Origin: Vicinamibacteria bacterium
GTDB taxonomy: Bacteria > Acidobacteriota > Vicinamibacteria > Fen-336
DNA: 64,000 bases
Direction: 5' to 3'
Assembly (NCBI GenBank): GCA_039812725.1
Contig: JBDIBD010000001.1
Coordinates: 3,550-67,549, forward strand
In this document: in pieces, positions 6,230-61,618 of the stretch
Layout: the number at the start of each line of letters is the position of its first letter
How positions within the stretch are numbered: position 1 is the first letter of the stretch
Program-made: the position numbers and the translations under genes
Notes under the pieces: generated by a model
Seen by the model: only the letters and a program-made list of their open reading frames with translations
Database searches by the model: none
Told to the model about the DNA's origin: nothing

Positions 6230-6305
6230 TCCCTGGCCTGCCTCCGGGATGCAGTTCCTGACGGATGGTCGTGGGGGTGATTTTACGGGGGCGGAGGCCT
6301 CGGTG

Positions 6306-6875
6306 CTATCGGCCCGCCCGGGCCAGGTCGCGATGCCAGTTGAGGAAGCGGGGCCCCGTGACGACCCTGGCGCGGATGGCCTCGTCGAACAGGCCGGCGA
6401 GCCCGTCCCAGGGCTCGACCGATGCCGGAAGAAGCGTCCACCGGAGCTCGTCCAGAAGCCAGTGCCCCTTGATGTCCTGGCACCGGTAGCAGGCCGTCAC
6501 CAGGTTGGCCGCGTCGCCCGACCCGCCTCTTGACCGTGGCGTGATGTGGTCGGCGGAGGCCGTCAGGTCCCAGACCAGCGGGTGCGTCGAGTCCCTCTTC
6601 CAGTTGGGGTGGATCGGAATCAAGTCGGGGAAACGGGCGCTCAACAAGGGGAGGACCGGCGGGAAGAGAGTCCTCCGGCCGCAGTAGCGGCAGGTGAAGT
6701 TGTCGCGCCGGAAGACCTCGATCTGGAGGCGCCTGGGCGCCGGCCTGGCGGCCGGCAGTTCCTCTGGCCGCCAAGCTACCGGCGTCAAGGCCCGCCGACC
6801 AGCTGCATCGTCGCCTCGCAAGAGGGCCTTCAGCGCGGCCTCGACGCTGCCCAACGACTCGCTCGAGCCGGTCAT
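6306..6875 (-). CDS. HNH endonuclease family protein
   Basis: 189 aa; CRYCGRRT...ADHITPRSRGG...NLVTACYRCQ matches HNH/zinc-finger nuclease layout; 76 bp upstream of pglW on same strand. Confidence 0.7.
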   Translation of the reverse strand: MTGSSESLGSVEAALKALLRGDDAAGRRALTPVAWRPEELPAARPAPRRLQIEVFRRDNFTCRYCGRRTLFPPVLPLLSARFPDLIPIHPNWKRDSTHPLVWDLTASADHITPRSRGGSGDAANLVTACYRCQDIKGHWLLDELRWTLLPASVEPWDGLAGLFDEAIRARVVTGPRFLNWHRDLARAGR

Positions 6876-7090: not shown

Positions 7091-9283
7091 ATGGAAACAC
7101 TGGTGCGCACCCCCCAGACCGTCTTCATGCAGCCCCAGCGGCTCATGGTCCCTCTGTTCCAGCGGCCCTACGTCTGGAACGAGGACGATCAGTGGGAGCC
7201 GCTCTGGAACGACGTGGTTCGTGTGGCCAACAGGCTGCTGGCCGGGCCGCACACCCGACTTCAGTCGCACTTTCTTGGTGCCGTGGTGCTGCAGCAGGTT
7301 CAGCGGCAGATCGGCCTGATGCAGGAACGCACCATCATCGACGGGCAGCAGCGGCTGACCACGCTGCAGCTCTTCATGGATGCCCTCCACGCCGAGCTGC
7401 TCGCCGCGGGCCAACAGCCTCCTGCCCTGCGGCTCGAGCCGCTCGTCACCAATGCCCAAGCCTTCTGCGCCAAGCCCGAGGACCGCTTCAAAGTCTGGCC
7501 GACGAACCGGGATCGGCCGGCCTTCAACGCCGTCATGAGCGCCACGCCGCCGGTGGATCACGACGCCCTCGGCCACTCCGGTGCCCGGATGGTCGAGGCG
7601 CATCGGTTCTTCAGCGAGCAAGTCCGTGCTTGGCTCTCCTCCGCCGGTCCTGACGGAGTGGAGGCGCGAGCGCTGGCGATCGAGACCGTCGTGCGCGACC
7701 ACCTCCAGATGGTCGTGATCGACCTGGGCGTCGATGAGAACGCCCAGGAGATCTTCGAGACGCTGAACGCGCGAGGGGCACGCCTCACCGCGGCCGACCT
7801 CATCAAGAATTTCGTCTTCCAGCGGCTCCTCGAGGCCGGCGCGGATGTCGAGCGCGCCTACCAGCGCGACTGGCAGGACTTCGAGACCGGGTTCTGGGAG
7901 ACCGAGATCAGCGTCGGCCGGGTCAAGGAGCCGCGCTCGTCGATCTTCCTCAACCACTGGCTGATCGCCCGTACCGGCGAGGAGATCGTCGCGCGCGAGG
8001 TCTTCACCCGCTTCAAGAGCTTCGCGTCGTTCGATGCCGGCCTCCCCATGGAGGCCCTGCTCCAGCAGGTCCAGCGGGCGGCAACGGTCTATCGTCGCTT
8101 CGTCACGAGCGCTTCCACCCTGACCGGCCCGGTGGACCGCCTCGGGCTCTTCGGCTACCGCACGGGCATCCTGGAGAGCGAGGTCATCAAGCCGCTCGTG
8201 ATGCACCTCCTCGATCCCGAGGAGGCCCCAGTCCCGGAGGAACAGCTCTACGGCGCTCTCGACGCCGTGGAGGCCTGGATGGTGCGACGGATGCTCGTTC
8301 GCGCTACGACCAAGAACTACAACCAGGTCGTCGCCGAGCTCATCAGGGAGCTGCGCGCCTCTGCCCGGACGCAAGCGGGGACCGTGGTGGTGCGGTATCT
8401 GGCGCGCCAGACGAGCGCGAGCCGCTACTGGCCGGACGACGAGGAGGTGCTGGGCGAGCTGAGGACGCTCTTGGCGTATCGGCGCCTCGGACGCGGCCGC
8501 CTCCGCATGGTCCTCGAGGCCGTCGAGGACCACCTGCGTGGCTGGAGGGACGGCGGCGTCGGACTGGGCGGCGAGCGAGTCGCTCGCGGCCAGTACGCCA
8601 TCGAGCACGTCATGCCTCGGAAGTGGGCTGCACACTGGCCAGCCGCCGAGGGGTTCCGGAGCGAGGCCGACCGCGACCAGCTCATCCACACGATCGGAAA
8701 CCTCACACTTCTGACGGGCAAGCTGAACAGCAAGGTCTCGAACGGCCCATGGCTTGGCCCTGACGGGAAACGGCAGGGGCTCGAGGGGCACGATGTCCTC
8801 CTGCTCAACCGCGAGCTTCTGAGAGCCAATCGGGACGCATGGACGGATGCGGCGATCCGTGGGCGGTCGGAGGAACTGGCGAAGCTCATCCTCGCGATCT
8901 GGCCTGCGCCCGCCGGGCATCGTTCCGGTTTCGCGGAGAAGGCCAAGACCCACTCGCGGCACAAGATCCACCTCGCCGACCTCATCAGTGCCGGACTGCT
9001 CGAGGCCGGCATGCCCCTCTATGCACGCCGCAGGCAGTTCGCCGACCGCCTGATCACCCTTCTCCCTGATGGGCGGGTCGACGTCGAAGGCACGGCGTAT
9101 GCCAAGCCGTCCACGGCGGCGACAGCGCTCACTGGTAGGCCGACGAACGGCGTGTGGTTCTTCCTCGTCGATCGCGTCTCCCGCCGCTCCTTGCGGGACG
9201 TGCTCCGCGACTACGTCGACTCACGCGCGGTCGACGCCGAGGATGACGAGGGTGAGGAAGACGGCGACGACGAGGAGGCCTAG
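7091..9283 (+). CDS. GmrSD/BrxU-like type IV restriction endonuclease (N-terminal DUF262 ParB-like NTPase, C-terminal DUF1524 His-Me finger nuclease), acidic C-terminal tail
   Basis: DGQQRLTT motif (DUF262), C-terminal AIEHVMPRKW...IGNLTLLTGKLNSKVSNGPW (DUF1524); ATG at 7091 preceded by GGAGGGAG RBS; track ORF starts earlier at 7004 but lacks RBS. Confidence 0.85.
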   Translation: METLVRTPQTVFMQPQRLMVPLFQRPYVWNEDDQWEPLWNDVVRVANRLLAGPHTRLQSHFLGAVVLQQVQRQIGLMQERTIIDGQQRLTTLQLFMDALHAELLAAGQQPPALRLEPLVTNAQAFCAKPEDRFKVWPTNRDRPAFNAVMSATPPVDHDALGHSGARMVEAHRFFSEQVRAWLSSAGPDGVEARALAIETVVRDHLQMVVIDLGVDENAQEIFETLNARGARLTAADLIKNFVFQRLLEAGADVERAYQRDWQDFETGFWETEISVGRVKEPRSSIFLNHWLIARTGEEIVAREVFTRFKSFASFDAGLPMEALLQQVQRAATVYRRFVTSASTLTGPVDRLGLFGYRTGILESEVIKPLVMHLLDPEEAPVPEEQLYGALDAVEAWMVRRMLVRATTKNYNQVVAELIRELRASARTQAGTVVVRYLARQTSASRYWPDDEEVLGELRTLLAYRRLGRGRLRMVLEAVEDHLRGWRDGGVGLGGERVARGQYAIEHVMPRKWAAHWPAAEGFRSEADRDQLIHTIGNLTLLTGKLNSKVSNGPWLGPDGKRQGLEGHDVLLLNRELLRANRDAWTDAAIRGRSEELAKLILAIWPAPAGHRSGFAEKAKTHSRHKIHLADLISAGLLEAGMPLYARRRQFADRLITLLPDGRVDVEGTAYAKPSTAATALTGRPTNGVWFFLVDRVSRRSLRDVLRDYVDSRAVDAEDDEGEEDGDDEEA

Positions 9284-35448: not shown

Positions 35449-35793
35449 ATGGACCCGAGGAACCCGCACCGCCTGAACGACCTCCGCAGCCTGGCGATTC
35501 ATCGCCTGATCGCGGAGCGCATCGAGGCGGACCCGGGCTTGCTCGAAGGGGTTCGCCGACGGCTGGGGGACTTGGCCACACGGGGCGTCCTGCACCCCCG
35601 CTACGCCGCCGCGTGGGCGGAGCTGCTCGACGGCCCACTCGATCGGCTGCTGAGGACGCTGCGTGACGACGGCGAGCGGGCCACGGCCCTGCGCCAAGCA
35701 TCCCCCTTCTCCGGCATCATCGACCAGGCCACGCGTTGGCGCGTCTGGAAGGACGTCACGGCTGCCTGGCGGGCAGACCGGGGAGCGGCATGA
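35449..35793 (+). CDS. hypothetical helical protein, upstream partner of NTase-like gene (putative antitoxin)
   Basis: 114 aa; stop overlaps (ATGA) the start of the downstream gene. Confidence 0.45.
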   Translation: MDPRNPHRLNDLRSLAIHRLIAERIEADPGLLEGVRRRLGDLATRGVLHPRYAAAWAELLDGPLDRLLRTLRDDGERATALRQASPFSGIIDQATRWRVWKDVTAAWRADRGAA

Positions 35794-36359
35794 CCCGCAG
35801 CCAGCTCGAGCATGTGTTGCGGGCCGCGGCTGCCATCAGCGAGTGCTCGACGATCATGGTGGTCGGAAGCCAGGCCATCCTCGGTGAGCACCCCGACGCG
35901 CCCCCGGAGCTGCTCGTCTCGATGGAGGTCGACATCTACCCGCTCGAGCGCCCGGAGAGGGCCGACCTGATCGACGGCGCCATCGGCGAGGTGTCCGCCT
36001 TCCACGAGACCTTCGGCTACTACGCGCAAGGCGTGGGCCCCGAGACGGCGACGCTGCCAAGGGGCTGGGAGCGGCGGCTTGTACGGATCGTCGCCAGCCC
36101 CGCGGTCGGCCTGTGTCCCGAGACGCACGACTTGGTCCTGTCGAAGTACGCCGCTGGGCGGGAGAAGGACCGAGACTACGTCCGCGCCGCCGCACGCCAT
36201 GCACTTGTCCGGCAGGATGTGCTGCTCGCGAGGCTCGAGGACCTGCCCATCACCGAAGAGCACAGGATCCGCCTTCGCGGCCTCATCGGACAGGATTTCG
36301 CCCCCGGCCACGGGCTGGAGCAGTTCCAGACGGAGCCCGGGCCCGACCGGGAGCGCTGA
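35790..36359 (+). CDS. putative nucleotidyltransferase-fold protein (DUF6036-like); C-terminal 14 aa encoded by the palindromic repeat element
   Basis: MVVGSQAILGEHPD...MEVDIYP NTase-like; ends ...GLEQFQTEPGPDRER inside repeat copy A. Confidence 0.5.
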   Translation: MTRSQLEHVLRAAAAISECSTIMVVGSQAILGEHPDAPPELLVSMEVDIYPLERPERADLIDGAIGEVSAFHETFGYYAQGVGPETATLPRGWERRLVRIVASPAVGLCPETHDLVLSKYAAGREKDRDYVRAAARHALVRQDVLLARLEDLPITEEHRIRLRGLIGQDFAPGHGLEQFQTEPGPDRER

Positions 36360-36390
36360 CCGCGTCAGCGCCCCCGGGCCGGGACCGGCG
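36314..36390. repeat. GC-rich palindromic repeat element copy A (core GCGCTGACCGCGTCAGCGC, TGA on both strands)
   Basis: Seen in sequence; 8-bp perfect arms GCGCTGAC/GTCAGCGC flanked by CCCGGGCCCGACCGGG / CCGGGCCGGGACCGG arms. Confidence 0.7.
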
Positions 36391-36464
36391 AGCGGGTCAA
36401 TGTGGTCCTGGAGCACGGCCCACACCCGCGCCTCGACGGTCAGCAGCGCTACACTGCATGGGGC

Positions 36465-37052
36465 ATGGCGACCACGAGTCAGCGACCCACGGACGCCGAT
36501 CTTCTGGCGCTACCGCGTGTCGGCAAACACGAGGTGCTCGAGGGCGTGGTCCGCGTGAGACCAGCGAGCTGGGCTCACGAAGAGATCGTGGCCCGGATCA
36601 TCTACGAGCTCTCTGCGCACGTCCGAGCCAACCGGCTCGGGACCGTTCTCGGGTCCAACACGCTCTACTGCCTGCCTGGCGGCAACCAGCGCGCCCCCGA
36701 CGTGAGTTTCGTCGCCGCCGGCAGGCTCCAGCAAGCCGGAGCTGGCCCGTTCCCGCAGCTCGCCCCCGACCTCGCCGTCGAGATCCTATCCCCCGGACAG
36801 AGCCCCCGAGCGGTCGGAGATGCCGTCGGTGAGTATCTGGCCGCGGGAGTCCGCCTCGTTTGGGTGATCGACCCCGCCAAGCGTTGTGCGGCCTCGTACC
36901 GCTCGCTCACCGACGTGCAACACGCCGAGCTGGGTGGCTACCTCGACGGTCACGACGTCCTTCCCGGGCTCCGCTGCGCCCTCCAGGATCTCCTGCCGAC
37001 CCCTGGCCTGGAGCAGTTCGGGCCGGAACCGGGGCCCGACCGGGAACGCTGA
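36465..37052 (+). CDS. Uma2 family endonuclease (DUF820, PD-(D/E)XK-like)
   Basis: 196 aa; typical Uma2 layout; ATG at 36465; C-terminus ...GLEQFGPEPGPDRER lies in repeat copy B. Confidence 0.75.
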   Translation: MATTSQRPTDADLLALPRVGKHEVLEGVVRVRPASWAHEEIVARIIYELSAHVRANRLGTVLGSNTLYCLPGGNQRAPDVSFVAAGRLQQAGAGPFPQLAPDLAVEILSPGQSPRAVGDAVGEYLAAGVRLVWVIDPAKRCAASYRSLTDVQHAELGGYLDGHDVLPGLRCALQDLLPTPGLEQFGPEPGPDRER

Positions 37053-37080
37053 CCGCGTCAGCGACTCCGGTCCAGCTCCG
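37001..37080. repeat. palindromic repeat element copy B (ACGCTGACCGCGTCAGCG) providing stop codons for convergent genes 36465..37052(+) and 37058..37747(-)
   Basis: TGA at ~37050-52 (+) and TCA at ~37058-60 (= TGA on minus) both sit inside the palindrome. Confidence 0.7.
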
Positions 37081-38974: not shown

Positions 38975-39822
38975 GAGAGGACCTGCTGGCCCTGGCTCGG
39001 AGGCACGAGACCCCGGACGCGCGCCTGAACGTGGTCCGCGAGTGGCTCCAGGCCGCGATACTCAAGGGCCTCGAGCGCCGTGGGGCCATGGCAGCGCTGG
39101 CCTTCCACGGCGGCACGGCCCTGCGCTTCGTCTACGGCATCGGCCGCTACTCGGAGGACCTGGACTTCGCCTGGCACGGACCCCGGACGGCGGGCCAGCC
39201 CGCCGGCTGGCTCGGCCAGGTCAAGACCGACCTGTCCAACCTCGGCATCGCCTGTCGGGCGGGAGTCGCCGAACGGGAGCGCATGGTCGAGGCACGCTTC
39301 GAGTTCCCGGCGCTTGGGAAGGATCTGGGCCTGGAGGCCCTCACCGTCAAGGTCGTGATCGCCCTCCGCGCACCCGCCGCGGCTGGCCTCGAGGTGTCCA
39401 CGGTCACGCGCTTCCAGACGCTGTCGGTGAGGCACCACGACCGGCCGACCTTGTTCGCGGGGAAGCTCCACGCGCTCCTCCATCGGCGCCACACCAAGGG
39501 CCGCGACTACTACGACCTGCTCTGGTACCTGGGCCACCCCAGCTGGCCGGAACCGAACCTGCCGTTCCTGAACGACGCCCTGCGCCAGGTCGCCTGGAAG
39601 GGCGGAGAGCTGACGGCCCCGACCTGGCGCCCTGCCGTGCTCGCCCGCCTACAACGCGTGGACTGGGCCGCCGCCCGCCGTGACGTCGAACCGTTCCTCG
39701 AAGACCCCGAGGAGGCGCGCCTGCTCACGCGCGACGCCCTCGAACGGGCGCTTGCTGCGCCTCAGCGGACCTTCAGCATGCGTGACCTCGCCGATCCTCC
39801 CGGATCCGACCGGGAGCGCTGA
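38971..39822 (+). CDS. abiEii: AbiEii/DUF1814 nucleotidyltransferase toxin
   Basis: FHGGTALRFVYGIGRYSEDLDF signature; AAGGAG RBS; ATGA overlap with abiEi; C-terminus ...PPGSDRER from repeat half-copy C. Confidence 0.85.
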   Translation: MREDLLALARRHETPDARLNVVREWLQAAILKGLERRGAMAALAFHGGTALRFVYGIGRYSEDLDFAWHGPRTAGQPAGWLGQVKTDLSNLGIACRAGVAERERMVEARFEFPALGKDLGLEALTVKVVIALRAPAAAGLEVSTVTRFQTLSVRHHDRPTLFAGKLHALLHRRHTKGRDYYDLLWYLGHPSWPEPNLPFLNDALRQVAWKGGELTAPTWRPAVLARLQRVDWAAARRDVEPFLEDPEEARLLTRDALERALAAPQRTFSMRDLADPPGSDRER

Positions 39823-39830
39823 CGGCGGCA
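39800..39830. repeat. palindromic repeat element, left half-copy C (CCGACCGGGAGCGCTGAC)
   Basis: Seen in sequence. Confidence 0.5.
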
Positions 39831-39897: not shown

Positions 39898-41079
39898 ATG
39901 TCGGACAGGGTCTACATCTGGCAGCAGCCCGACTGGCCACGGTGGCGCTACGACGCCGCGCACGTCAGCGGCGCTCTGGCCCAGGCGCACCACGCCCAGG
40001 GCCACCTCCTCGGGCGTACGGGCGACCTGGGCTTCGAGGTGCAGGGCCGGGCCCGACTCGACGCGCTGACCGAAGAGGTCCTGAAGACCAGCGCGATCGA
40101 GGGCGAGACGCTGCGGGTCGAGGCTGTGCGTTCGTCCGTCGCGCGGCGCCTGGGCGTCGACATCGGGGCCCTCGGCCCGGCCGACCGGCACGTGGACGGT
40201 GTCGTGGACATGGTGCTCGACGCGACCGCGCGCCATGACCAGCCACTCACGGCGGAACGCCTTTGCGCCTGGCACGCGGCGCTGTTTCCCACGGGCTACA
40301 GCGGCCTCCGGAAGATCCGCGCGGGGGCCTGGCGCGACGACGCCTCGGGACCCATGCAGGTCGTGTCCGGCGCCCTGGGCCGGGAGGAGGTCGTCCACTA
40401 CCAGGCCCCGCCGGCCGCCGGGCTCGAGGCCGACCTGGCCGCCTTCCTGGCCTGGTTCAACTCGGACGAGCCGGGCGACCCGCTGATCAAGGCCGGCCTG
40501 GCGCACCTGTGGCTCGTGACGCTGCACCCGTTCGACGACGGGAACGGCCGCATCGCTCGCGCGGTGGGGGACATGGCGCTGGCTCGCGCCGAGCGCTCCT
40601 CCCAGCGCCTCTACAGCCTCTCCGCCCAGGTGCAGCGCGAGCGCGCGGACTACTACGCCGTCCTCGAGCGCACCCAGGCCGGCTCGCTCGACGTGACCGA
40701 CTGGCTCGCCTGGTACCTGCGCTGCCTGCTGCGGGCGCTGCAGGGCGCCGAGCTGACCTTCGACGCGGTGCTGCACAAGGCCCGCTTCTGGCAGCGCTGG
40801 GCCGGCACGACCTTCAACGCCCGCCAGGTGAAGCTGCTCAACCGGCTGCTCGACGGGTTCGACGGCAAGCTGACCAGCAGCAGGTGGGCGGCGCTCGCCA
40901 GGTGCTCGCACGACACCGCCCTGCGCGACATCTCGGCCCTGCTCGAGCGCGGGGTGCTGGTGCGCGCCGCGGCCGGCGGCCGCAGCACCCACTACCTCCT
41001 CGGTGACGCGCCCTCGGGCTTGGACCGCGGCATGGAGCAGTTCCAGCCGGAGCCCGGCGGGACCGACCGGGAACGCTGA
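39898..41079 (+). CDS. Fic family protein (N-terminal DUF4172 + Fic/DOC domain)
   Basis: Fic motif HPFDDGNGRIARA; 393 aa; C-terminus ...MEQFQPEPGGTDRER from repeat half-copy D. Confidence 0.85.
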   Translation: MSDRVYIWQQPDWPRWRYDAAHVSGALAQAHHAQGHLLGRTGDLGFEVQGRARLDALTEEVLKTSAIEGETLRVEAVRSSVARRLGVDIGALGPADRHVDGVVDMVLDATARHDQPLTAERLCAWHAALFPTGYSGLRKIRAGAWRDDASGPMQVVSGALGREEVVHYQAPPAAGLEADLAAFLAWFNSDEPGDPLIKAGLAHLWLVTLHPFDDGNGRIARAVGDMALARAERSSQRLYSLSAQVQRERADYYAVLERTQAGSLDVTDWLAWYLRCLLRALQGAELTFDAVLHKARFWQRWAGTTFNARQVKLLNRLLDGFDGKLTSSRWAALARCSHDTALRDISALLERGVLVRAAAGGRSTHYLLGDAPSGLDRGMEQFQPEPGGTDRER

Positions 41080-41085
41080 GCAGGC
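41034..41085. repeat. palindromic repeat element, left half-copy D
   Basis: GAGCAGTTCCAGCCGGAGCCCGGCGGGACCGACCGGGAACGCTGA. Confidence 0.5.
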
Positions 41086-41792: not shown

Positions 41793-41860
41793 CACCGAGA
41801 CGTGCAGCCGGCCACCTGCCGCGAGCGGCGCCCACGCTGGCGCGGGCGTCCCTGCGCCCC

Positions 41861-41935
41861 CGCGTCAGCGGCCCCGGTCCGGCTCCCGGGAAGGGGGTGG
41901 GGCCAGGTCGGCCATGGTCATCCGGCGGACCGGCA
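41861..41935. repeat. palindromic repeat element, right-half long variant copy E (CGCGTCAGCGGCCCCGGTCCGGCTCCCGGGAAGGGGGTGGGGCCAGGTCGGCCATGGTCATCCGGCGGACCGG), not attached to a gene
   Basis: Same ~72-bp sequence recurs at 43866-43935 and 51403-51475. Confidence 0.65.
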
Positions 41936-43832: not shown

Positions 43833-43844
43833 GCGCTGCGCCGG

Positions 43845-43935
43845 CGGATCCGACCGCGAGCGCTGACCGCATCAGCGGCCCCGGTCCGGCTCCCGGGAAG
43901 GGGGTGGGGCCAGGTCGGCCATGGTCATCCGGCGG
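43845..43935. repeat. palindromic repeat element copy F (GCGCTGACCGCATCAGCGG + long right variant); supplies stop and last ~20 codons of the minus-strand ATPase gene
   Basis: Seen in sequence. Confidence 0.65.
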
Positions 43936-44098
43936 ACCGGCTCCGGAAGCTCGAGCGCGAAGCGCCACGCGGGCCGCACCGGCACCTGGCGGCCGTCGCA
44001 CAGCTGCAGCGGCTCGGATTCGAGGCGTGACACGACCAGGGGTGTCGCCGAAGGGTGCTCCTCGAGCGCCTCGGCGAGGGCGCGCGACTCGCGCTCCC
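43866..44098. repeat. ~230-bp segment (3' end of ATPase gene + repeat) duplicated at 51400-51623 (~93% identity)
   Basis: Direct comparison of both stretches in the window. Confidence 0.7.
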
Positions 44099-52920: not shown

Positions 52921-53212
52921 CGCTTCCGGGCCTCGGCGGCTGCCCCCGTCCACACCCCGCCCAGCCCACCCCGACTTCGCCCGGAACTCGTTCGCGACGG
53001 TTGCGGTAACTTGCCATCCGTGGCAAGTTGTAGCCGTGCGCTGGACGCCGTCCTCTCGGACCTGAAGCGACAGGGCTACGCGCCCGAGATCGCCCGGCTG
53101 CGTGACGCCAGGACCGTCCAGGCCGCGTTCGTGCGCTTCCCGGACCTCCTGACCGAGCTGGGCGTGGCTCGGCTCCGCACGAAGGCCCTCGCCATCCGCG
53201 ATCGACGAGTCC

Positions 53213-53530
53213 GTGCCGCGCGCGGCCGGCTACGACGGTTTCGTACGCTTCGGGCGCAGCCGCTACAGCGTGCCGCCCGAGTACGCCGGAGAGAAGGTCA
53301 CCGTCGGCCGTGAGGATCGACTCGTGGCCATCCGGGCGCGCGACATGGTCGTGGCCGAGCACCTGGCTGCAGAAAGACCCGGCTCGTGCGTGGCGGACCG
53401 CGCACACCTCGAGGCCCTCTGGAAGCTGTTGCTGCAGAAGCCCCAGAGCCCACCACCACCGCGCTGGCAGCTGACCTTCGACACAGGCGTCGAGACCACG
53501 CCACTGGCAGCCTACGAGGTGGCCCAGTGA
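53213..53530 (+). pseudogene. istA: IS21 istA transposase, C-terminal fragment only
   Basis: ...AAGYDGFVRFGRSRYSVPPEYAGEKVTVGREDRLVAIRARDMVVAEHLAAERPGS... matches the IstA C-terminal region; N-terminal HTH/DDE parts absent. Confidence 0.65.
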
Positions 53531-54329
53531 GCGTCACCAACGAGGACAAAGCCACGGCAGCGCTGGCCCAACTCGGCCTCGAGGTAGCCCAGGCCCAGCT
53601 CGGCCAGGCCGCTCAGCAGGCCGCCGCGGCCGCCTGGTCCTACACCCACTTCCTGGGCTACCTGCTCGAGGCCGAGATCGCCACCCGCCACGAGCGCACC
53701 GTGGCCCTCAACCTCAAATTTGCCAAGCTGCCCTATCTGAAACGCCTGGCCGACTTCGACTTCAAAGAGCAACCGAGCATCGACCGTCGGCTCATCGACG
53801 AGCTGGCCACCGCGGCCGCTTCCTGCACGAGGGGCGCAACGTCATCCTACCGGGCCCTCCGGGCGTGGGCAGGACCAACCTGGCCATAGCCCTCGGCGTC
53901 CTGACCGCCGAGATGGGACACCGCATCTACTTCACCACCGCCGTCGAGCTTGCTCGTCGCATGGCCAAGGCCATGGCCGACAATCGTCTCACCCGCGAGA
54001 TCACCAGCCTGGTGCGCCCCAAGCTGCTCATCGTCGACGAGGTCGGCTACCTCAGCCTGGAGCCGGCTCACGCCAGCCTTCTCTTCCAGGCCATCTCCGA
54101 GCGCTACGAGCGCCGCCAGGCCATCGTGCTCACCAGCAACAAGGCCTTCGCCGAGTGGGGGCAGGTCTTCGCTGGCGACCCGATCATGGCCTCAGCTGCC
54201 CTCGACCGGCTGCTGCACCGCTCGACCGTCATCAACATCCGCGGCGAGAGCTACCGCCTCAAGGAGAAGCGTCAGGCCCGCGCCGCGAGCACGAAGGAGG
54301 TGCCCCAGGACATCCCCCCGAGCATCTGA
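53527..54329 (+). pseudogene. istB: IS21 istB helper ATPase with 2-bp insertion frameshift near 53815-53830
   Basis: Frame A ...LIDELAT then frame B GRFLHEGRNVILPGPPGVGRTNLAIALG...LLIVDEVGY...DRLLHRSTVINIRGESYRLK; observed ACCGCGGCCGC where an in-frame ACCGGCCGC is expected. Confidence 0.7.
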
Positions 54330-54470: not shown

Positions 54471-54926
54471 CTACCAGATCCCCAGCCACCCTCTTGTCCT
54501 TCGTCCTGCACTCTTCCGGTTGCGCTCCCACGCCACCGCGACTGGCAGAACCTCGATTCTCGACAGGGGCTGTTGCCGCGCGCGCTTGCTCCATTCCTCG
54601 TCTGACAAGGGGCCAACGATGGTCTCGGCCCGCGCATCAAGAATCCACCAGCCCGGCCGCTCGCCTCCGGCCACTGGGGTGACCCGTGCCACGATGAACC
54701 TATCGTCCGATCCGAGATCGATCACACTGCCACCCATCGGGCCGTTGTCGGTTTCACCGTGTAGCCTAGCCCGCCAACTGCACCCGTTGACCGTGTAGGT
54801 CCATGAAATGTCGCTCCGCTCCAGGCAGTAGTTCCCAGCGATAGCGACGCTGTTGCCGTCGCTACCGCAGCCACTGAGGATACCCGCCAAGACCAGCAGC
54901 GCTACCGATCTCACTAGTTGGCGCAT
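54471..54926 (-). CDS. lipoprotein, candidate immunity protein for the upstream Rhs C-terminal toxin
   Basis: MRQLVRSVALLVLAGILSGC lipobox; overlaps the 3' end of the Rhs gene by 13 nt. Confidence 0.6.
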   Translation of the reverse strand: MRQLVRSVALLVLAGILSGCGSDGNSVAIAGNYCLERSDISWTYTVNGCSWRARLHGETDNGPMGGSVIDLGSDDRFIVARVTPVAGGERPGWWILDARAETIVGPLSDEEWSKRARQQPLSRIEVLPVAVAWERNRKSAGRRTRGWLGIW

Positions 54927-57900
54927 CCCGACGGCTCGGTCCAGGAGATGGAGATGGTCACGTTTCCGAACTCGGAGGGCTTGCCCCACGAGGATTGCGT
55001 GCCTAGGAACTCCGGCATGTGGAGAGCCAGCGAATTGAAGTTCATCGTATCACTGACCGTCACTGTCGTCGTTCCATTGCTGGACGGGGTCATGTCAACC
55101 CTGTAGGTGCCGAGGGCTTCGCGCCACGGATTCTCGATATTTGCTGGGTCTACTATGGGAGCGCCAGCGAGGCCTCCGGGCAGACTCGCTAAGGAGGGGT
55201 ACGCTTGCCCGGCCGTGGTGAACTGCCCCGCTTGACCATAGATATAGCTATTACCTGGACCGCGCACCGAGTGGCCGGGCGCGGCTCCACCGTATAGCCC
55301 GTATGAGGCGTTGTATCCTGACAGTCCCGTGCATCCCTTCTTCCGGTGTTCCTTGCGCGCGTTCTCGACGCCGGGTGCACCCTTCATTTGATTGGCCGCG
55401 TCGGACGTGCTCCCGACAATCACGATCTCGTTTTCCCCCTCGCCGGTGAAGAAGTCACGGAGAATGTCGACGACTCTGGGCTCGTGCGGCATCCGATCAA
55501 CCGGGTCCGGGTGGATGGTCGACTCCGGCTCGGTCAGGTAGATCAAAGGCGGTGCATTAGCCGTGACGGTTACGGTGTCGTTGCGGTAGACGTCGATCTC
55601 GTTCACGCTCGCGGACACCCACCCGTGGCCGTTCCAGCACTCGAACCCTGATCCTTGCTGTTCCGGCCTACAACTCGACAGCGGATACTGAAGCCCTGAT
55701 GGGTCTGAGAAACTCACCGGGTTGCCGCCGCTGTAGGAGTAGCGACTTGGGCCGACACCGCCCTTGGCGGGGTCAGCAGGATCGGCCGAAACAAAGACAC
55801 CAAGCTCACTATCATAGTAGCGAGCATGGAGATAGGTCAGACCGGTCTCCGCGTCCAGCCGCTCGCTGATGTAGCTCAGCGGCTCCCAGTAACTGGTGGA
55901 GTCGGCGACCTTCTGGCCGTACGGTCTGTAGGCACTGCGCAGGATGTTCACGCCAGTCCCGTCCGTCACCACTTGCACTGAGCCCAGCCGGTCCACGTGG
56001 AGCCAGCGGTTGACCGTACCGACACGCTCGCCGATCACGGTGCCGCCCAACCGTAGGTACTTCGTCACCTCGGCACCGCGGATCTCGTAGTCATCCCCCA
56101 GCGGATATAGCGTCGTCCCGCCCGGTGCCGTCTTCTTCAGCCGCGTACCGTCGCCCGCGTAGGCAAAGGATACGCCGTTGATCACCGTCGGCTTGTTCTC
56201 CACATTCCACTCGTAGGTCCGGCCGCGCCCCGAGAGCAGGTTGCCGTTCGGGTCGTAGGTCATCGCCTGTCCGGCCACGGTCGTAGGCGCGTGTGGTCTG
56301 GTCAAGCCGGGCAGAGGGTACGTGATGGCACCGATGCGCGAGTCCCAGGTCTTGCTTCCCACAATGTCGTACTGGAAGCTCTGGCTCTGCGCTGGGTCGT
56401 ACAGGCTCGTGGCTGTGGTCAGCCTGCCCAGCAGGTCGTAGCCGTAGCTCCAGCTCTCGTAGGGGAAGGGGCTGCTGACGCTCTGCACCCGCCCCAGCAC
56501 GTCCGGGGTGTACTGCAGGTCCTGGATTAGGCCGCCCGGCTCACCCGTCGAGGTGGTCTGGATGCGACGCAGCGCGCCGCGCTCGTCGAAGTCCCAGAAG
56601 GTGGTCGTGCCGTTGGCCTGGTAGCGCCACTTAGGCCGCCCGAGCGCGTCGTACGTGGCGTTCGTGACGAAGCCCGGCACGGTCTTCATGCGGCCCGCCG
56701 CGTCGTACGTGATCGGAGCGGCCGGCGTCCCGAAAGCGTCGCCGTCGGGCCAGGTGATCCCCGTCAGGTGGCCGCTCGTCGAGTAGCGTCGCTGCAGCGT
56801 GTACGTGACCCCGCCCAGCACGCGACTTTGTCGCACCTGCCGGCCGAGAGAGTCGTAGTCGTACTGTTCGGTGCCGTGGCCGTCGGTCATGGTCGTCAGC
56901 CGACCGGTGTTGAAGTAGCCCGTACGTTGCTCGCCGTAGCTGAAGGTGACGTTGGTACCGCCTGGGCCGTACGTGGTCTTGCGGATCGTCCGGCCGGTCG
57001 CGTCTGTCTGGGTCTCGGTGATCTGGCCCTTGGCGTCGGTCTGGGTGGTGGTGCGGTTGATCGTGTTGTAGGCCCAGCTCCAGGTTCCCGAATCGGGGTC
57101 GGCGCGCTGGAGCAGGCGTCCCAGCGAGTCGTACGTCCAGCTCCACTCGTTGCCCGCGGGATCGGTCATGCCCACCCGCTCGCCGCGCGCGTTGTAGGTC
57201 AGCTCGCTCGCCACGGCGCGGCCCTGGTCGTCCTCCTGTTCGGTGCGCCGTGTGCGGCCGAAGGCGTCCAGGTACGTCGTGGCCGTGCGGCCAAGCGGAT
57301 CCGTGGCGGTCTGCTGCCAGGCGCCGTAGGCCACCTGGATCTGGTGGTTGTCCGGCAGGACGGTTGTCACCACCCGGTCGAGGGCATCGTAGCCGTAGCT
57401 GGTCACCGGGCTGCTCGCTGCGCCGGCGTAGTACGGCTGCTTCTGCCACGCCAGGCCGCCGCGGGCGTTCTTGCCCTTCTCCGACACGATCGTCTCGGCC
57501 AGGCTGGGGCCCTTGCTCTCGGAGCGGTAGCTCCAGCCGAAGCCGTCGAAGTAGTCCTGCTTGAAGTAGTCGCCCGTGCCATCGCCGGGCGAGGGCGAGG
57601 GGCTCTCGGCCCGCGTGCGCTGTTGCGTAGGCGAACCCAGGTTCAGGTAGGTGTAGTTCTCGAACGTGCCCAGGGGGCCGCTGCGAGTCTGCACTCGGCA
57701 CAGGGCGTCATACGAGACCGTGGTGCTCAGGCCGTTCGCGTCCGTGGTGGTCGCCGGGGCGCTACAGATCCAGTCCCACTGAGCGGTCTGGGCCTCGTTC
57801 AGGGAGTTTCTCACCTCAGCCGGCCGGAGGTGATAGGCCGAGTCCATGGTGACGCTAACCGGGGCCGAGGAGGGGTAGCTAACCGTCTGGACGTTACCCC

Positions 57901-60900
57901 AGGCGTCGTAGGTCATCGTCGTGTCTTCGTAGGCTCCGACAGTGTCGAGCCACTTGCTCGAGCGGGTCAGGCGACCCGCCATCGGGGGCGTACCGGGGTC
58001 TTGGTAGTCATAGCCATAGGCCGTGCGCCGCACCAGCGTCCCCGCCGGCCCCGCTCCCTCGCGCAGCTCCTCGGCGGCGGGGCGGCTGACGATGTAGGCG
58101 GTGGTGTTGGCGGCATACTGCGTGACCGCCGTGCGCTCGTCGCCAGCGACGTCGTAGTCCCCGTGCTCTGTGACCTGGGTGGGGTTCCCGTAGGAGTTGT
58201 AGGCGTAGGTCGTGTACGTGCGCTTGCTCTCGCCACCCGTGCCGTAGGCGTAGCTCCACGACCCGGTGGGCAGGCGGAAGTACGGCGCGGCCGCCGGCAG
58301 GGCCGAGTACTCCTGCTCGCTCTTGGCCAGGAGCGCTCCGCCGCCGGCGTGCGCCTCTGTCCGCTCGAGGAGCGGACCCACCTTCGGATCCTGCAGGAAC
58401 CAGGTCTCGTTGTACGGACAGGCGGCTTCGCCGGGCAGGCAGGGCTTCGTGACGCGCGCGTAGCGGAAGCCCAGGTAGCGCCGCTCCAGGCGGTCCATGA
58501 AACCGCCCGAGTACGTGTAGGACGTGGTCGACACGCCCCCGCGCCCGTCGTTGGTGGTGATGCCCGTGACCGCGTAGCGCGGCGACGGGTTGTTCGTGCT
58601 CGGGAAGGCCGTCGTGGCCGTGTAGGTCACGCTGACCGTCCCGCCCAGGGGGTTCTGGTACCCCGCCAGCAGGTCGCGGCTCTGGCCCGACGTCCCGCCG
58701 AACGCCACGGGCGTCGCCAGCTTGTCGCACAGCAGGTCCATCTTGGCGTCGCCGTCGAAGTCTCCGCCCCGCAACTGCCCCTCGCACCAGCTCGTCTTCC
58801 AGGTTTCGGCCGCCCCCAGCCCGCTGGCGTCGCTCCAGTCGCGCACCTGGATGTCGTTCACCGCCCCGACCGCGTTGTTGCAGACGATCTCGCTGGCCCC
58901 GTCGCCGTCCACGTCGGCCGCGAAGACCTGGGTGGTGGGATCGGTCTCGCCAGGGACGAACGGGCACCACGTGCCGTACGTCCCCTGCTCGACGAAGCTA
59001 CGGCCGGTCGAGAGGGCGATCTTGCCGTTGTCGACGCAGTGGGCGTCGGTGCGCCCATCGCCGTTGAAGTCCCCCAGCACGTAGTGCGCCCCACAGAACG
59101 TCTGGCCCAGCTCCCCGAAGGAGGGGTACACGAAGGTGCTGCCGGTCGAGACGTAGACCTGCAGGTGGCCGTTGCCGATGCAGGCCCAGTCGTCCTTGCC
59201 GTCGCCGTCGAAGTCGATGGCGCTGGTCTGCTGATCGGCCGGCGGGGCGCAGCCCAGGTTGCCCCAGTACGAGAACTGGAAGGAGCTGCCGGTGGAGCGG
59301 CCGATGATGATCGGCGACTGGGCGACGTTTGGCGGTGGCGTCGTGCTGCTGTCCCAGTTCTGCCGGCATGAGACGTCCAGCCGGCCGTCCCCGTCGAAGT
59401 CGCCCGCCCCCAGCGCCACGTACGCGGTCTTGCAGTTGTAGTGGTAACCCGTGGCCGGGTCGGTGACGGCCGCGCTGCCCCAGTTGACCGCGTCTGCGAA
59501 GGCCGCGCCCGTCGACAGAGTGACGAGGAAGTCGGCGTTGTAGGGACTGAAGGCCGCCAGGTCGGTCTTGCCGTCGTTGTTGAAGTCGCCGGTGAGCGCC
59601 CGGCTGTAGTCATAGCCCGTGCGCCAGACCACGGGGTCGGCGAAGCCCGCCCCGGTCGAGAGCCGCACGCGCATCTGCTGCGTCTGGTTGGTGTAGCAGG
59701 CCTGGTCGGTGCGCCCGTCCCCGTTGAAGTCGCCCGTGAGGAGCTGCTCGCCCCAGCACCAGCCCGCCACGTTCTGCAGCGAGCCCGAGATCATGACCGA
59801 GCTGACCACGTCCTGCTTGCGGGTCAGGGTGGCGACGGCCGCCAGTGGATAGCCCACCTTCGAGCCCGCCGGGCGCTCGCGCAGGAGCTGGCCGTTCTTC
59901 TTCCACTGCACGGCGCCGTTGTTGACCTCGATGCGCAGCACGTCGCCGTAGTTGGCGTTCCAGGGACCGTAGGACGTGCTCTTCTCGTAGGCGTAGACGA
60001 CCACCGGGCCCGGCGAGCCGCCCTGCTCGCTGAAGGCGTAGTCGATCTCGGCCGGCGCGAAGTCCTTGACCTTGCGGCTCAGGCCCCAGCGCTTGGGATA
60101 GCCGCCGAGCGCCAGCGCCTCCATGTAGCCGTTGCCGCTCGACAGCGCCCGCGTCGAGCTGCCGCGGGCGTCGTAGTCGCCGTTGACGCCGTCGATCTTC
60201 TTCAGCGTGTTGGTGGGATCGACGGCCTCGGTCTTGACCAGCTCGGACCACTCCACCGGCTCCGTGGTGCCTCCCGGGGTGGGCGGCTGGGAGCCCTGGG
60301 ACACGAAGGTGCGGCCGGCAGCGTCGGTGGTGTAGGTGAAGGTGTGCGGCGGCAGCGAGGTGCCGCCGGTGATCAGGCCGTTCGTGTGGACGAGATCCTT
60401 GCCGAACTGCTGCACGCTGGCCAGCAGCGAGCGGCCCGTCTGCGGGCTGGTCGTGTAGGTCAGCTTGTAGCCCCGGATGTGGCCGACGCCCGGCATCCAG
60501 ACGATCACGCTCAACAGCCGCTCCGTCGTGCGGCCCAGGTCCGCTCCGCGGGCGTAGGTCAGCACGTCGGGACGAGCCTCCCGGGCCAGCCACACCGCGT
60601 AAGGCCCATAGGTGACCGTGCTCGGGTAGCAGTCCGTCGTGCACTGCCACGAGTAGTTGACGGTGTTGCCCAGGGTGTCGATCACCTGGCTCAGGCCCCA
60701 GCGGTAGGTCCCCTGGGCTGCGCTCATCAGCGACGTGTAGACGGAGCGCACGCCGCTTTTCTCCCAGACCGTCCAGGTGTTGCTGGCCGCGTCCAGCTTG
60801 ATGCGCTTGAAGTTCTCGTTCTCGGTGGCGTGCGTGCCGCCCGCCGCACAGCCCGGCGAGACCACGCCGGCCTGACAGGCCAGCATCTTGGCGCCGTCCA

Positions 60901-61204
60901 GCCGGAAGACGTCGCTGCCGTCCCAGCGCGGCGTGCCGCCCCCGGCGTTCGTGCGCTCGATCGTGCTGAAGCCCCCCAGACTCCAGCCGACGCCCACCAG
61001 CCCGTCGCGGCCCTCCGACGTGTAGCCGAGCGCCAGGTGTGGCTCGAGGCCGCGGAAGGGCGGGACTTCGATCGGAATGCCGTGGCCGAACGAACCGAAG
61101 AAGGGGCTCACCTGCTCGCTGGCCTTCTCCGCGGCCTGGGCGGCGGGGCTCGCGAGGGCGATCAGGACGACGACGAGGGCGAAACGGAGGGCACGCGAGT
61201 TCAT
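54914..61204 (-). CDS. SpvB/TcaC-N domain + FG-GAP/VCBS + RHS-repeat core polymorphic toxin (TcB/TcC-like fusion) with ~270-aa variable C-terminal domain of unassigned family
   Basis: Signal peptide; SpvB N-domain (HLALGYTSEGRDGLVGVGWSLGGFSTIERT); multiple GDFNGDGRTD FG-GAP repeats; YD repeats (YDALGR, YDSLGRLL); RHS core end ...YYDSELGVFVSADP...YSYSGGNPVSFSDPSGL, then variable CT domain. Confidence 0.9.
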   Translation of the reverse strand: MNSRALRFALVVVLIALASPAAQAAEKASEQVSPFFGSFGHGIPIEVPPFRGLEPHLALGYTSEGRDGLVGVGWSLGGFSTIERTNAGGGTPRWDGSDVFRLDGAKMLACQAGVVSPGCAAGGTHATENENFKRIKLDAASNTWTVWEKSGVRSVYTSLMSAAQGTYRWGLSQVIDTLGNTVNYSWQCTTDCYPSTVTYGPYAVWLAREARPDVLTYARGADLGRTTERLLSVIVWMPGVGHIRGYKLTYTTSPQTGRSLLASVQQFGKDLVHTNGLITGGTSLPPHTFTYTTDAAGRTFVSQGSQPPTPGGTTEPVEWSELVKTEAVDPTNTLKKIDGVNGDYDARGSSTRALSSGNGYMEALALGGYPKRWGLSRKVKDFAPAEIDYAFSEQGGSPGPVVVYAYEKSTSYGPWNANYGDVLRIEVNNGAVQWKKNGQLLRERPAGSKVGYPLAAVATLTRKQDVVSSVMISGSLQNVAGWCWGEQLLTGDFNGDGRTDQACYTNQTQQMRVRLSTGAGFADPVVWRTGYDYSRALTGDFNNDGKTDLAAFSPYNADFLVTLSTGAAFADAVNWGSAAVTDPATGYHYNCKTAYVALGAGDFDGDGRLDVSCRQNWDSSTTPPPNVAQSPIIIGRSTGSSFQFSYWGNLGCAPPADQQTSAIDFDGDGKDDWACIGNGHLQVYVSTGSTFVYPSFGELGQTFCGAHYVLGDFNGDGRTDAHCVDNGKIALSTGRSFVEQGTYGTWCPFVPGETDPTTQVFAADVDGDGASEIVCNNAVGAVNDIQVRDWSDASGLGAAETWKTSWCEGQLRGGDFDGDAKMDLLCDKLATPVAFGGTSGQSRDLLAGYQNPLGGTVSVTYTATTAFPSTNNPSPRYAVTGITTNDGRGGVSTTSYTYSGGFMDRLERRYLGFRYARVTKPCLPGEAACPYNETWFLQDPKVGPLLERTEAHAGGGALLAKSEQEYSALPAAAPYFRLPTGSWSYAYGTGGESKRTYTTYAYNSYGNPTQVTEHGDYDVAGDERTAVTQYAANTTAYIVSRPAAEELREGAGPAGTLVRRTAYGYDYQDPGTPPMAGRLTRSSKWLDTVGAYEDTTMTYDAWGNVQTVSYPSSAPVSVTMDSAYHLRPAEVRNSLNEAQTAQWDWICSAPATTTDANGLSTTVSYDALCRVQTRSGPLGTFENYTYLNLGSPTQQRTRAESPSPSPGDGTGDYFKQDYFDGFGWSYRSESKGPSLAETIVSEKGKNARGGLAWQKQPYYAGAASSPVTSYGYDALDRVVTTVLPDNHQIQVAYGAWQQTATDPLGRTATTYLDAFGRTRRTEQEDDQGRAVASELTYNARGERVGMTDPAGNEWSWTYDSLGRLLQRADPDSGTWSWAYNTINRTTTQTDAKGQITETQTDATGRTIRKTTYGPGGTNVTFSYGEQRTGYFNTGRLTTMTDGHGTEQYDYDSLGRQVRQSRVLGGVTYTLQRRYSTSGHLTGITWPDGDAFGTPAAPITYDAAGRMKTVPGFVTNATYDALGRPKWRYQANGTTTFWDFDERGALRRIQTTSTGEPGGLIQDLQYTPDVLGRVQSVSSPFPYESWSYGYDLLGRLTTATSLYDPAQSQSFQYDIVGSKTWDSRIGAITYPLPGLTRPHAPTTVAGQAMTYDPNGNLLSGRGRTYEWNVENKPTVINGVSFAYAGDGTRLKKTAPGGTTLYPLGDDYEIRGAEVTKYLRLGGTVIGERVGTVNRWLHVDRLGSVQVVTDGTGVNILRSAYRPYGQKVADSTSYWEPLSYISERLDAETGLTYLHARYYDSELGVFVSADPADPAKGGVGPSRYSYSGGNPVSFSDPSGLQYPLSSCRPEQQGSGFECWNGHGWVSASVNEIDVYRNDTVTVTANAPPLIYLTEPESTIHPDPVDRMPHEPRVVDILRDFFTGEGENEIVIVGSTSDAANQMKGAPGVENARKEHRKKGCTGLSGYNASYGLYGGAAPGHSVRGPGNSYIYGQAGQFTTAGQAYPSLASLPGGLAGAPIVDPANIENPWREALGTYRVDMTPSSNGTTTVTVSDTMNFNSLALHMPEFLGTQSSWGKPSEFGNVTISISWTEPSGCAN

Positions 61205-61618
61205 CGAGGCACCGTGAGGTTGTCGGGTTCGAGGGAAGGAGACGGCGCGGGCGGGAGGTCGGGCGTGCAGCTCGTTCGCCGGCTGGAGGGAAGACAGACC
61301 ACGCCACGAAAATCCAAGCGGCCTCCACGGGAGGGTCCACGCCGGACAGCGCGGACATGGAGCACGTCAGTTCAAACGGGCGGATGTGTATCAGACTCAC
61401 CCCCCCATACGTCAAGCACAATCTCTGGCACCCCGAACATGCTCCGCATTGTGAGGTATCCCAAATGGTGTATTCGGCTCATGGCTCTGCTGCCCGGTTT
61501 CGTCCACCGCCTCTGCGGAAGGTCCAGGAAGAGCCCGGCTGCGCCACTAGGTCCGCGGGGGCTCGCTCCTCCCCGAAAGCACCAGCCTGTGACGACGAGC
61601 GTACCTGGCTGCCGGTGC

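Follow-up and report, generated by a model that had tools for sequence, protein, structure and literature searches.

The stretch of DNA analysed here (the window, 64,000 nt at its full length) comes from a Vicinamibacteria bacterium (assembly GCA_039812725.1, contig JBDIBD010000001.1) whose DNA has a G+C content of about 70%. Two overlapping genes on the minus strand of the window encode a 2096-aa RHS polymorphic toxin (open reading frame (ORF) 54914-61204, with an ATG start) and a 151-aa lipoprotein that is the candidate for its immunity protein. Together they span 54471-61204, the same interval in which an earlier reading made from the letters of the window (the sequence-only reading) had placed such a pair. 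Our analysis revealed a genuine RHS polymorphic toxin locus with both genes intact, and showed that the C-terminal tip of the toxin and the lipoprotein represent previously unannotated, co-inherited families, which is an incremental advance within a well-known framework. The features of the two genes, with amino acid positions counted in the respective protein, are as follows.

61133-61204, minus strand: Sec-type signal peptide of the toxin, aa 1-24, with putative cleavage between AQA and AE (translation inspected; retained in the orthologues P0039 and P0043)
60875-61096, minus strand: SpvB/TcB-like N-terminal domain, aa 37-110 (Pfam PF03534, E = 1.6e-8)
58805-59737, minus strand: FG-GAP beta-propeller repeats, about aa 490-800 (Pfam FG-GAP_3, E = 4.4e-23; FG-GAP, E = 4.2e-17)
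58442-58801, minus strand: TcdB_toxin_midN domain, aa 802-921 (Pfam PF12256, E = 1.8e-15)
55931-58441, minus strand: RHS/YD-repeat shell, about aa 922-1758 (RHS_repeat PF05593, E = 1.1e-19; TIGR01643, E = 1e-14)
55691-55930, minus strand: RHS-associated core, the putative aspartyl autoprotease plug, aa 1759-1838 (TIGR03696, E = 9.1e-19)
55478-55690, minus strand: tip linker, aa 1839-1909, with a Cys-x10-Cys loop (C1845, C1856), outside the family-conserved part
54917-55477, minus strand: conserved toxin domain, aa 1910-2096, the last 187 aa (phmmer and profile matches; 32-sequence alignment)
54471-54926, minus strand: 151-aa lipoprotein, candidate immunity protein, read from the ATG at 54926 to 54471 (signal peptide and lipobox LSGC at aa 17-20, nt 54867-54926)

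The order of parts that the sequence-only reading had given for the toxin (signal peptide, SpvB domain, FG-GAP repeats, YD repeats and an RHS core ending in DPSGL) was recovered in full, by Pfam and NCBIfam matches for the domains and by inspection for the signal peptide. On inspection the N-terminus, MNSRALRFALVVVLIALASPAAQA followed by AE, resembles a Sec signal peptide, GDFNGDG-type repeats are readable in the translation of the propeller region, and the shell matches type VI secretion system (T6SS) Rhs shells in the PDB by sequence (e.g., 8h8a, E = 1.6e-21). According to the Pfam matches, a TcB-type N-terminal half (SpvB, midN and propeller) and a TcC-type RHS part are joined on one chain. 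The NCBIfam profile Rhs_assc_core (TIGR03696) is covered over its full length (profile positions 1-76 of 76, aa 1759-1838), and DPSGL (aa 1834-1838) forms the end of the core, directly before the tip. Cleavage is predicted after L1838; the chemistry of aspartyl autoproteolysis by RHS cores has been described (PMC8636562).

Conservation differs between the scaffold and the tip of the toxin. The four cluster-mates of the toxin at 90% identity (P0039, P0041, P0042 and P0043) are 90-99% identical to it over most of aa 1-1800, with a few 100-aa bins lower, down to 58%, and the identity falls to 35% or less after aa 1838. The D[PV]SG[LQ] boundary stands at the identical residue in three full-length cluster-mates. 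Beyond it, the tips of the cluster-mates are mutually unrelated and have no Pfam match, and that of the orthologue P0043 is a 17-aa stub. An exact look-up gave no contig for either the full toxin or P0042. Third codon positions have a G+C content (GC3) of 0.92 in the core, against 0.75 in the tip and 0.74 in the lipoprotein gene. The divergence of the tips at aa 1838 and the drop in GC3 are signs of a swapped module, and the GC3 break is that expected of an imported tip/immunity cassette. With near-identical scaffolds diverging after aa 1838, the designation as a polymorphic RHS toxin is well founded. The C-terminal domain, previously described as Gly/Ser-rich and about 270 aa long, is present, but it is 258 aa long after DPSGL and its Gly/Ser richness is moderate (11.6% Gly and 9.3% Ser). 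When the tip was modelled by AlphaFold2 (AF2) from its single sequence, the predicted local distance difference test score (pLDDT) was 36, with beta hairpins at a pLDDT of about 70 in the first 40 residues. The three full-size alternative tips (P0039, P0041 and P0042) each open with a short Cys-x6-10-Cys loop after the putative cleavage site, like the tip in the window (55640-55690, aa 1839-1856), and similar loops (C....GGCW) stand ahead of the toxin domain in carriers with a PT-TG motif; this post-cleavage loop may be a common release or translocation element.

In line with the sequence-only reading, which had seen no recognisable toxin motif in the tip, no match was found in Pfam (E <= 10), in NCBIfam or among PDB sequences, and a word-indexed protein search with the tip alone returned no match. 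An exhaustive phmmer search against 1.84 billion representatives obtained six relatives (E = 2e-21 to 1e-4), all of which align only to the last ~185 residues of the tip. A profile search had 10 hits and contributed eight further members, all without a Pfam domain; a pattern scan of GTDB, with each species represented by one genome, queried with an alignment of a five-sequence subfamily, found 20 loci, and a metagenome scan found one further locus. The toxin domain therefore belongs to a rare but recurrent unannotated family, and its conservation covers the last ~187 aa only. In total, members were seen at some 35 places among Proteobacteria, Bacteroidota, Chloroflexota and metagenome-assembled genomes (MAGs). 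The GTDB loci include Thiobacillus, Comamonadaceae, Acetobacteraceae, Xanthomonas massiliensis, Bradyrhizobium, Undibacterium, Nitrotoga, Dyella, Massilia, Lysobacterales, 'delta proteobacterium' MAGs, Reichenbachiella (Bacteroidota) and Herpetosiphon (Chloroflexota). Within the window, the hidden Markov model (HMM) of the family matches the toxin ORF only (E = 2.4e-33). The motifs of the family are W..G.G, M..APGV..AR, N[YF]...FGL and P[TS].QF[VI]GSYRVDI in the first part of the domain and N[NT][TS]S..S[FL].YG, then R, then GN[ML].Q...W.E in the second; in the window they read TGxG, M..APGV..AR, ASYGL, PWREALGTYRVDM, SDTMNFNS and GN....ISWTEP. The window's toxin domain has P0001 and P0003 (41-42% identity) and P0002 (38%) among its closest relatives, and the subclade to which they belong (P0001-P0004) is marked by long insertions and a conserved Cys pair (C1958/C2094 in the window).

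Where the sequence suffices to tell, the family domain is the extreme C-terminus of YD/RHS proteins or of RHS-core fragments, and it is preceded either by an RHS core (...DPSGL, ...DPLGL or ...DRSGQ) or by a PT-TG-like motif, GGGKFANGA.TGAFGYLFN. Its carriers include RHS proteins with a Sec signal, DUF6531-RHS proteins and DUF6443 proteins, and one of them (L015) is a 2140-aa teneurin-like protein with TTR, FN-plug, NHL and YD-shell domains; several full-length carriers were seen on inspection to open with Sec-type leaders. Other members are orphan fragments beside toxin/immunity modules or recombinases, and orphan toxin/lipoprotein pairs sit in arrays with modules such as Ntox37 and Imm-NTF2-2. 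At one of these loci (L033, 10-3450) an orphan RHS-core fragment, carrying a toxin of the window subclade and followed by a lipoprotein, was seen on inspection to lie directly 3' of two tyrosine-recombinase-like ORFs, which suggests recombinase-driven exchange of tip cassettes.

The second gene of the module was found as had been described, with a 151-aa lipoprotein product and a 13-nt overlap with the 3' end of the toxin gene, whose stop codon lies at 54914-54916. Its product begins with MRQLVRSVALLVLAGILSGC, and three metagenome contigs with the same locus independently yielded an identical product of 151 aa. The gene downstream of the toxin domain is readable at 25 loci and always encodes a product of ~70-170 aa. 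A hydrophobic leader with a lipobox-like Cys is present in 24 of the 25 products (16 have the strict pattern), and the remaining one has N-terminal transmembrane helices. Many of the partner genes overlap the toxin stop by 4 nt, and at two more loci (P0004 and P0006) a small downstream gene is known from the gene listing alone.

These partners split into two lipoprotein families, both without a Pfam family. The pattern of class A is GCSR..E..L.G.Y.F ... YWFVVPEKT ... LCFD.D..CF, with mutual matches at E of about 1e-12 to 1e-7, and that of class B is GCD..FNSGCR ... GGG.L.G.V..IGW.D..IVA.R.STFRGDPDG.M.VD ... GP. An HMM of class B, built from seven proteins (signal peptides were removed from four, and the leaders of L014, L021 and L027 remained in the model), matches the mature part of the window lipoprotein (E = 4.2e-8), its sole match among the 585 ORFs of the window, in an alignment that begins ~9 residues past the lipobox Cys. 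The lipoprotein that follows P0002 is 42% identical to that of the window (E = 3e-27), and the two toxin domains are 38% identical. When the toxin domains are placed on a neighbour-joining tree, the class of the lipoprotein tracks toxin clade with one exception. The window lipoprotein scores below the gathering cut-off of 25 against DUF3997 (PF13162; 13.9 bits, E = 0.07), and its class-B relative L027 reaches 23.7 bits (E = 6.3e-5), and it is possible that class B is a distant relative of DUF3997.

Adjacency across phyla and scaffolds, co-divergence and two unrelated partner families are what would be expected of a toxin and its immunity protein. Colicin M (ColM) likewise has an 'amalgam' of immunity partners (PMC5821083). 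The proposal of the sequence-only reading that the lipoprotein is an immunity candidate gains from the conserved pairing, the homologous partners and the tracking of class with clade, and on these comparisons the role of putative immunity protein is strongly supported. In one clade with class-B partners throughout (L020, L022, L023 and P0012), the conserved Arg of APGV..AR is changed to Glu or Lys and the C-terminal W.E is lost concurrently; this coupled change could reflect a shift in function or a salt bridge of structural importance.

The cytoplasm is where most characterised Rhs tips act, for instance as nucleases or ADP-ribosyltransferases. An exported, lipid-anchored partner points to a toxin that acts outside the cytoplasm, and the paired cysteines of the tip (C1958/C2094 and the post-cleavage Cys loop) fit an oxidising compartment. 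From the location of the putative immunity protein we infer, as the sequence-only reading did, a periplasmic or envelope target, with which the paired cysteines are consistent. There are precedents for exported immunity in Cmi and ColM (PMC5821083) and in DUF943 and DUF3289 (PMC11148199), and for a lipoprotein as the immunity protein of a periplasmic toxin in VgrG2b (PMC6899460).

The locus probably encodes a two-gene interbacterial toxin/immunity module on an RHS scaffold, which acts on the envelope and is neutralised by its lipoprotein. In such a module, the 2096-aa precursor would be exported by Sec, and its SpvB-like domain, propeller, TcdB-midN domain and YD shell would build a closed cocoon, of TcB-TcC or teneurin type. 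The RHS core (aa 1759-1838), acting as an aspartyl autoprotease, would cut after DPSGL and free the 258-aa tip inside the shell, and this tip would consist of a ~70-aa cysteine-loop linker and the ~187-aa toxin domain. The toxin would attack the cell envelope of a competitor from the periplasmic side. The co-translated lipoprotein, anchored in a membrane and facing the periplasm, would bind the toxin and protect the producer. Travelling as a toxin-plus-lipoprotein cassette, the family has probably moved horizontally among the RHS/YD scaffolds of several phyla.

Several points weigh against this module. Toxicity, cleavage and neutralisation are predictions from sequence, and the signal-peptide and lipobox calls were made by inspection or by regular expression only. 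In the 32-sequence alignment, Asp, Glu, His and Cys residues do not form an invariant constellation of the kind that typifies hydrolases. The window copy departs from near-invariant positions of the family at five sites (Q to E2029, N to D2052, S to N2055, Y to L2067 and Q to I2084), so it could be altered or decayed. No TcA, PAAR or VgrG was found in the window ORFs scanned, a subset comprising the ORFs that are likely coding by GC3 and the ORF that leaves the window end 1.9 kb upstream of the toxin, and the genes found leave the route of a Sec-exported cocoon out of a diderm producer and into the periplasm of a neighbour unexplained. The toxin ORF itself has no match to PAAR or related Pfam families, no T6SS genes were found among the scanned ORFs, and no TcA lies within 8 kb on either side of the orthologous locus L032.

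A lead on the chemistry of the tip came from its predicted structure. AF2 with a 15-sequence alignment of the family gave a compact alpha+beta fold with disordered insertions (pLDDT = 67.5, predicted TM-score = 0.64). In a Foldseek search with this moderate model, the first nine matches were all colicin-M-family chains, at sub-threshold E-values of 0.02-0.15. DUF3289 is a reported structural homologue of colicin M and is toxic in the periplasm (PMC11148199). It is notable that, as far as a predicted model can tell, two methods converge on a small family that is also a periplasm-acting toxin.

Sequence comparisons with colicin M were made using a nine-member alignment of the catalytic domain (PDB, plasmid and database sequences, with the ColM sequence verified against the PDB). 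No Pfam match to colicin M (PF14859) was found at E <= 10 for any of the 15 family members, hhalign of the tip family against ColM gave E = 0.42, and HMM-versus-sequence scores were 0-5 bits; with hhalign and hmmsearch both negative, the idea of homology to ColM by sequence was rejected. The catalytic motif of ColM, DxYDx5HR (PMC5821083), is missing. Opposite to it, the family has SF.YG..P.W.RS and the window SLALHMPEFLGTQSSWGKP, and the aligned stretch retains at most the Tyr and the Arg in the family and neither of them in the window. Considering the weak hhalign and HMM scores and the missing motif, ColM-like cleavage of lipid II is a lead and not a finding. A match to a known toxin family, which would speak against novelty, is thus limited to a weak, non-significant fold resemblance to colicin M, and there is none by sequence or profile.

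If the lead were followed, the tip domain would be a remote colicin-M-fold enzyme that cleaves lipid II, or a different precursor linked to undecaprenyl pyrophosphate, at the inner membrane's outer face, with the lipoprotein in the role of Cmi; we consider this conceivable and on the whole unlikely. In a broader and equally tentative version, the tips would constitute a new family of periplasm-acting antibacterial toxins with a remote colicin-M-like fold and a different active site, possibly with new chemistry or a new target in envelope biogenesis, carried mainly by Sec-exported RHS/teneurin-like cocoons without T6SS or TcA partners. If true, this would point to an undescribed route for diderms to deliver an encapsulated toxin into the periplasm of a neighbour.

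The 32-sequence alignment of the family bears on whether the tip is an enzyme at all. As no residue of catalytic type is invariant across the 32 sequences, and the putative key residues R1950 and E2090 are replaced together in the otherwise intact clade of L020, L022, L023 and P0012, the tip might be a non-enzymatic envelope toxin, namely a pore former, a membrane disruptor or a blocker of an essential periplasmic or outer-membrane machine, and a pore former among RHS proteins has a precedent in Tse5 (PMC10684867). However, the toxin domain has no long hydrophobic or amphipathic segments, its AF2 model suggests a compact alpha+beta fold, and the immunity proteins of pore formers are usually polytopic membrane proteins and not small lipoproteins, which makes such a toxin quite unlikely here.

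The five substitutions in the window copy raise the question of decay, and so do the debris of an IS21 element ~140 nt past the lipoprotein stop and the truncated 17-aa tip carried by the orthologue P0043: the window copy might be a decaying or inactive module stranded beside the degraded IS21 in a mobile island. We judge this very unlikely, in that both ORFs are intact across 6.7 kb, three other metagenomes contain the same sequence, the changes from Q to E and from N to D are isosteric, and the Cys pair and most of the motifs are retained. Finally, a Tc-type toxin (TcB-TcC fusion) against eukaryotic cells, with the lipoprotein as an accessory or unrelated protein, would agree with the TcB-TcC architecture of SpvB, TcdB_midN, propeller and RHS, but it is extremely improbable considering that no TcA is present in the scanned ORFs of the 64-kb window or within 8 kb either side of the orthologue, that the same tip occurs on non-Tc scaffolds and in orphan modules with a lipoprotein partner, that lipoprotein class co-varies with toxin clade, and that a Sec signal peptide is not known as a feature of characterised Tc subunits.

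As an envelope-acting toxin/immunity module, the locus can be compared with several known systems. It resembles the Rhs/YD toxins (Photorhabdus Rhs1, P. protegens RhsA, P. aeruginosa Tse5 and B. subtilis WapA) in its YD shell, its DPxGL-ended core, the replacement of tips between close relatives, the small downstream gene and the foreign composition of tip and immunity gene. It differs from them in having a Sec signal and a TcB-like N-terminal half without PAAR, VgrG or Eag elements, in a partner that is a lipoprotein, implying a periplasmic site, and in a tip family that is unannotated. While T6SS Rhs effectors have a PAAR/VgrG-binding N-terminus and no Sec signal, the toxin in the window has no PAAR or related Pfam match and an apparent Sec signal peptide. 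With the TcB-TcC cocoons (TcdB2-TccC3 and YenB-YenC2) and the teneurin-like YD proteins it shares SpvB, TcdB_midN, propeller, RHS shell and a core of the autoproteolytic kind; the TcB and TcC parts are on a single chain, as in natural or engineered BC fusions, and L015 bears the same tip on a teneurin-like scaffold. Unlike Tc toxins, it has a Sec signal peptide and no TcA in the scanned window ORFs or around the orthologue, and its conserved immunity-like partner points to a bacterial rather than an insect target.

Colicin M (PF14859) and the T6SS pair DUF3289/DUF943 provide the best, albeit weak, structural match of the predicted tip domain, and they are also alike in periplasmic action and in having membrane-anchored periplasmic immunity of more than one unrelated type. 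The tip in the window differs in lacking sequence or profile similarity to colicin M and in being carried by an RHS scaffold instead of bacteriocin receptor/translocation domains or T6SS spikes, and the immunity lipoproteins of its family are unrelated to Cmi, PmiA and DUF943. The T6SS periplasmic effectors (VgrG2b/PA0261) are similar in their logic, with export or lipid anchoring of the immunity protein as the mark of a toxin that acts in the periplasm; their toxin folds and delivery machine are different, and no T6SS marker was found in the window scan.

RHS toxins are a major class of bacterial weapon, and the consistent pairing of this tip family with lipoproteins points to a target in the envelope. 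Envelope-targeting toxins have been informative before, as with colicin M, which acts on lipid II. Because the family occurs in several phyla and has no Pfam, NCBIfam or PDB entry, it makes a defined toxin/immunity pair available for testing. The locus also draws attention to a class that is not well understood, the Sec-exported RHS cocoons of diderms.

Two further features adjoin the module.

61205-61425, minus strand: upstream leader of 221 nt, nearly identical to that of the orthologous locus L032 (about 7780-8000; alignment)
53153-54329, plus strand: degraded IS21 (Pfam Mu-transpos_C_2, E = 3.4e-13; IstB_IS21, E = 1.2e-18 and 8.6e-48)

Beyond the 221-nt leader, the flanks of the window locus and L032 are unrelated, which suggests that the toxin gene travels with a long leader. 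The leader has no Rfam family, and promoter and terminator scans at both ends of the operon found nothing. A TTGACG-N17-GATACA sequence seen by eye in the leader fails the criteria of the promoter scan, and no claim is made for it. Of the IS21, only a C-terminal fragment of IstA is present, and two overlapping ORFs (53386-53889 and 53865-54329) make up the split IstB; this remnant, ~140 nt past the lipoprotein stop, marks the distal edge of the module. The sequence-only reading had proposed a search for orphan toxin/immunity pairs elsewhere in the genome; in the 64-kb window no second RHS core or toxin domain was found. The IS21 may have removed orphan toxin/immunity modules.

The toxin gene lies within a mobile/defence island with a TrwC relaxase, GmrSD, two AbiE pairs, Fic, Uma2 and an Xre-MbcA antitoxin. 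Upstream of the toxin and on the same strand, a high-GC3 ORF (63061-64000, minus strand) with beta-sandwich-like repeats leaves the window end; it has no Pfam match (best DUF7933, E = 0.05) and is not a TcA. At 2048-6496 (minus strand), a 1482-aa protein combines NERD, two protein-kinase and RNA polymerase alpha CTD-like domains and adjoins GmrSD and a DUF5682 gene, which is an unusual architecture for a defence island.

Repeats were also detected in the island. An element of 26-32 nt (consensus about CCGGGCCCGACCGGGAGCGCTGACCGCGTCA) is present in six copies, at 36337-36362, 37030-37055, 39800-39825, 40047-40072, 41057-41082 and 43844-43869. The copies are mostly at or near gene ends and contain TGA, so that unrelated ORFs (Fic/DUF4172, AbiEii, two 231-aa paralogues and others) share tails like ...EPGPDRER at their stops; the element looks like a cassette junction or a repeat of the repetitive extragenic palindromic (REP) kind in a defence-gene array. 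A direct repeat of 75 nt, 99% identical between 41860-41934 and 43867-43941, which lie 2 kb apart, flanks the AbiEi/AbiEii region. The two 231-aa ORFs stand back to back at 35667-36359 and 36360-37052, at a distance of exactly 693 nt; their 3' ends are related (105 nt at 77%), and they look like a tandem duplication.

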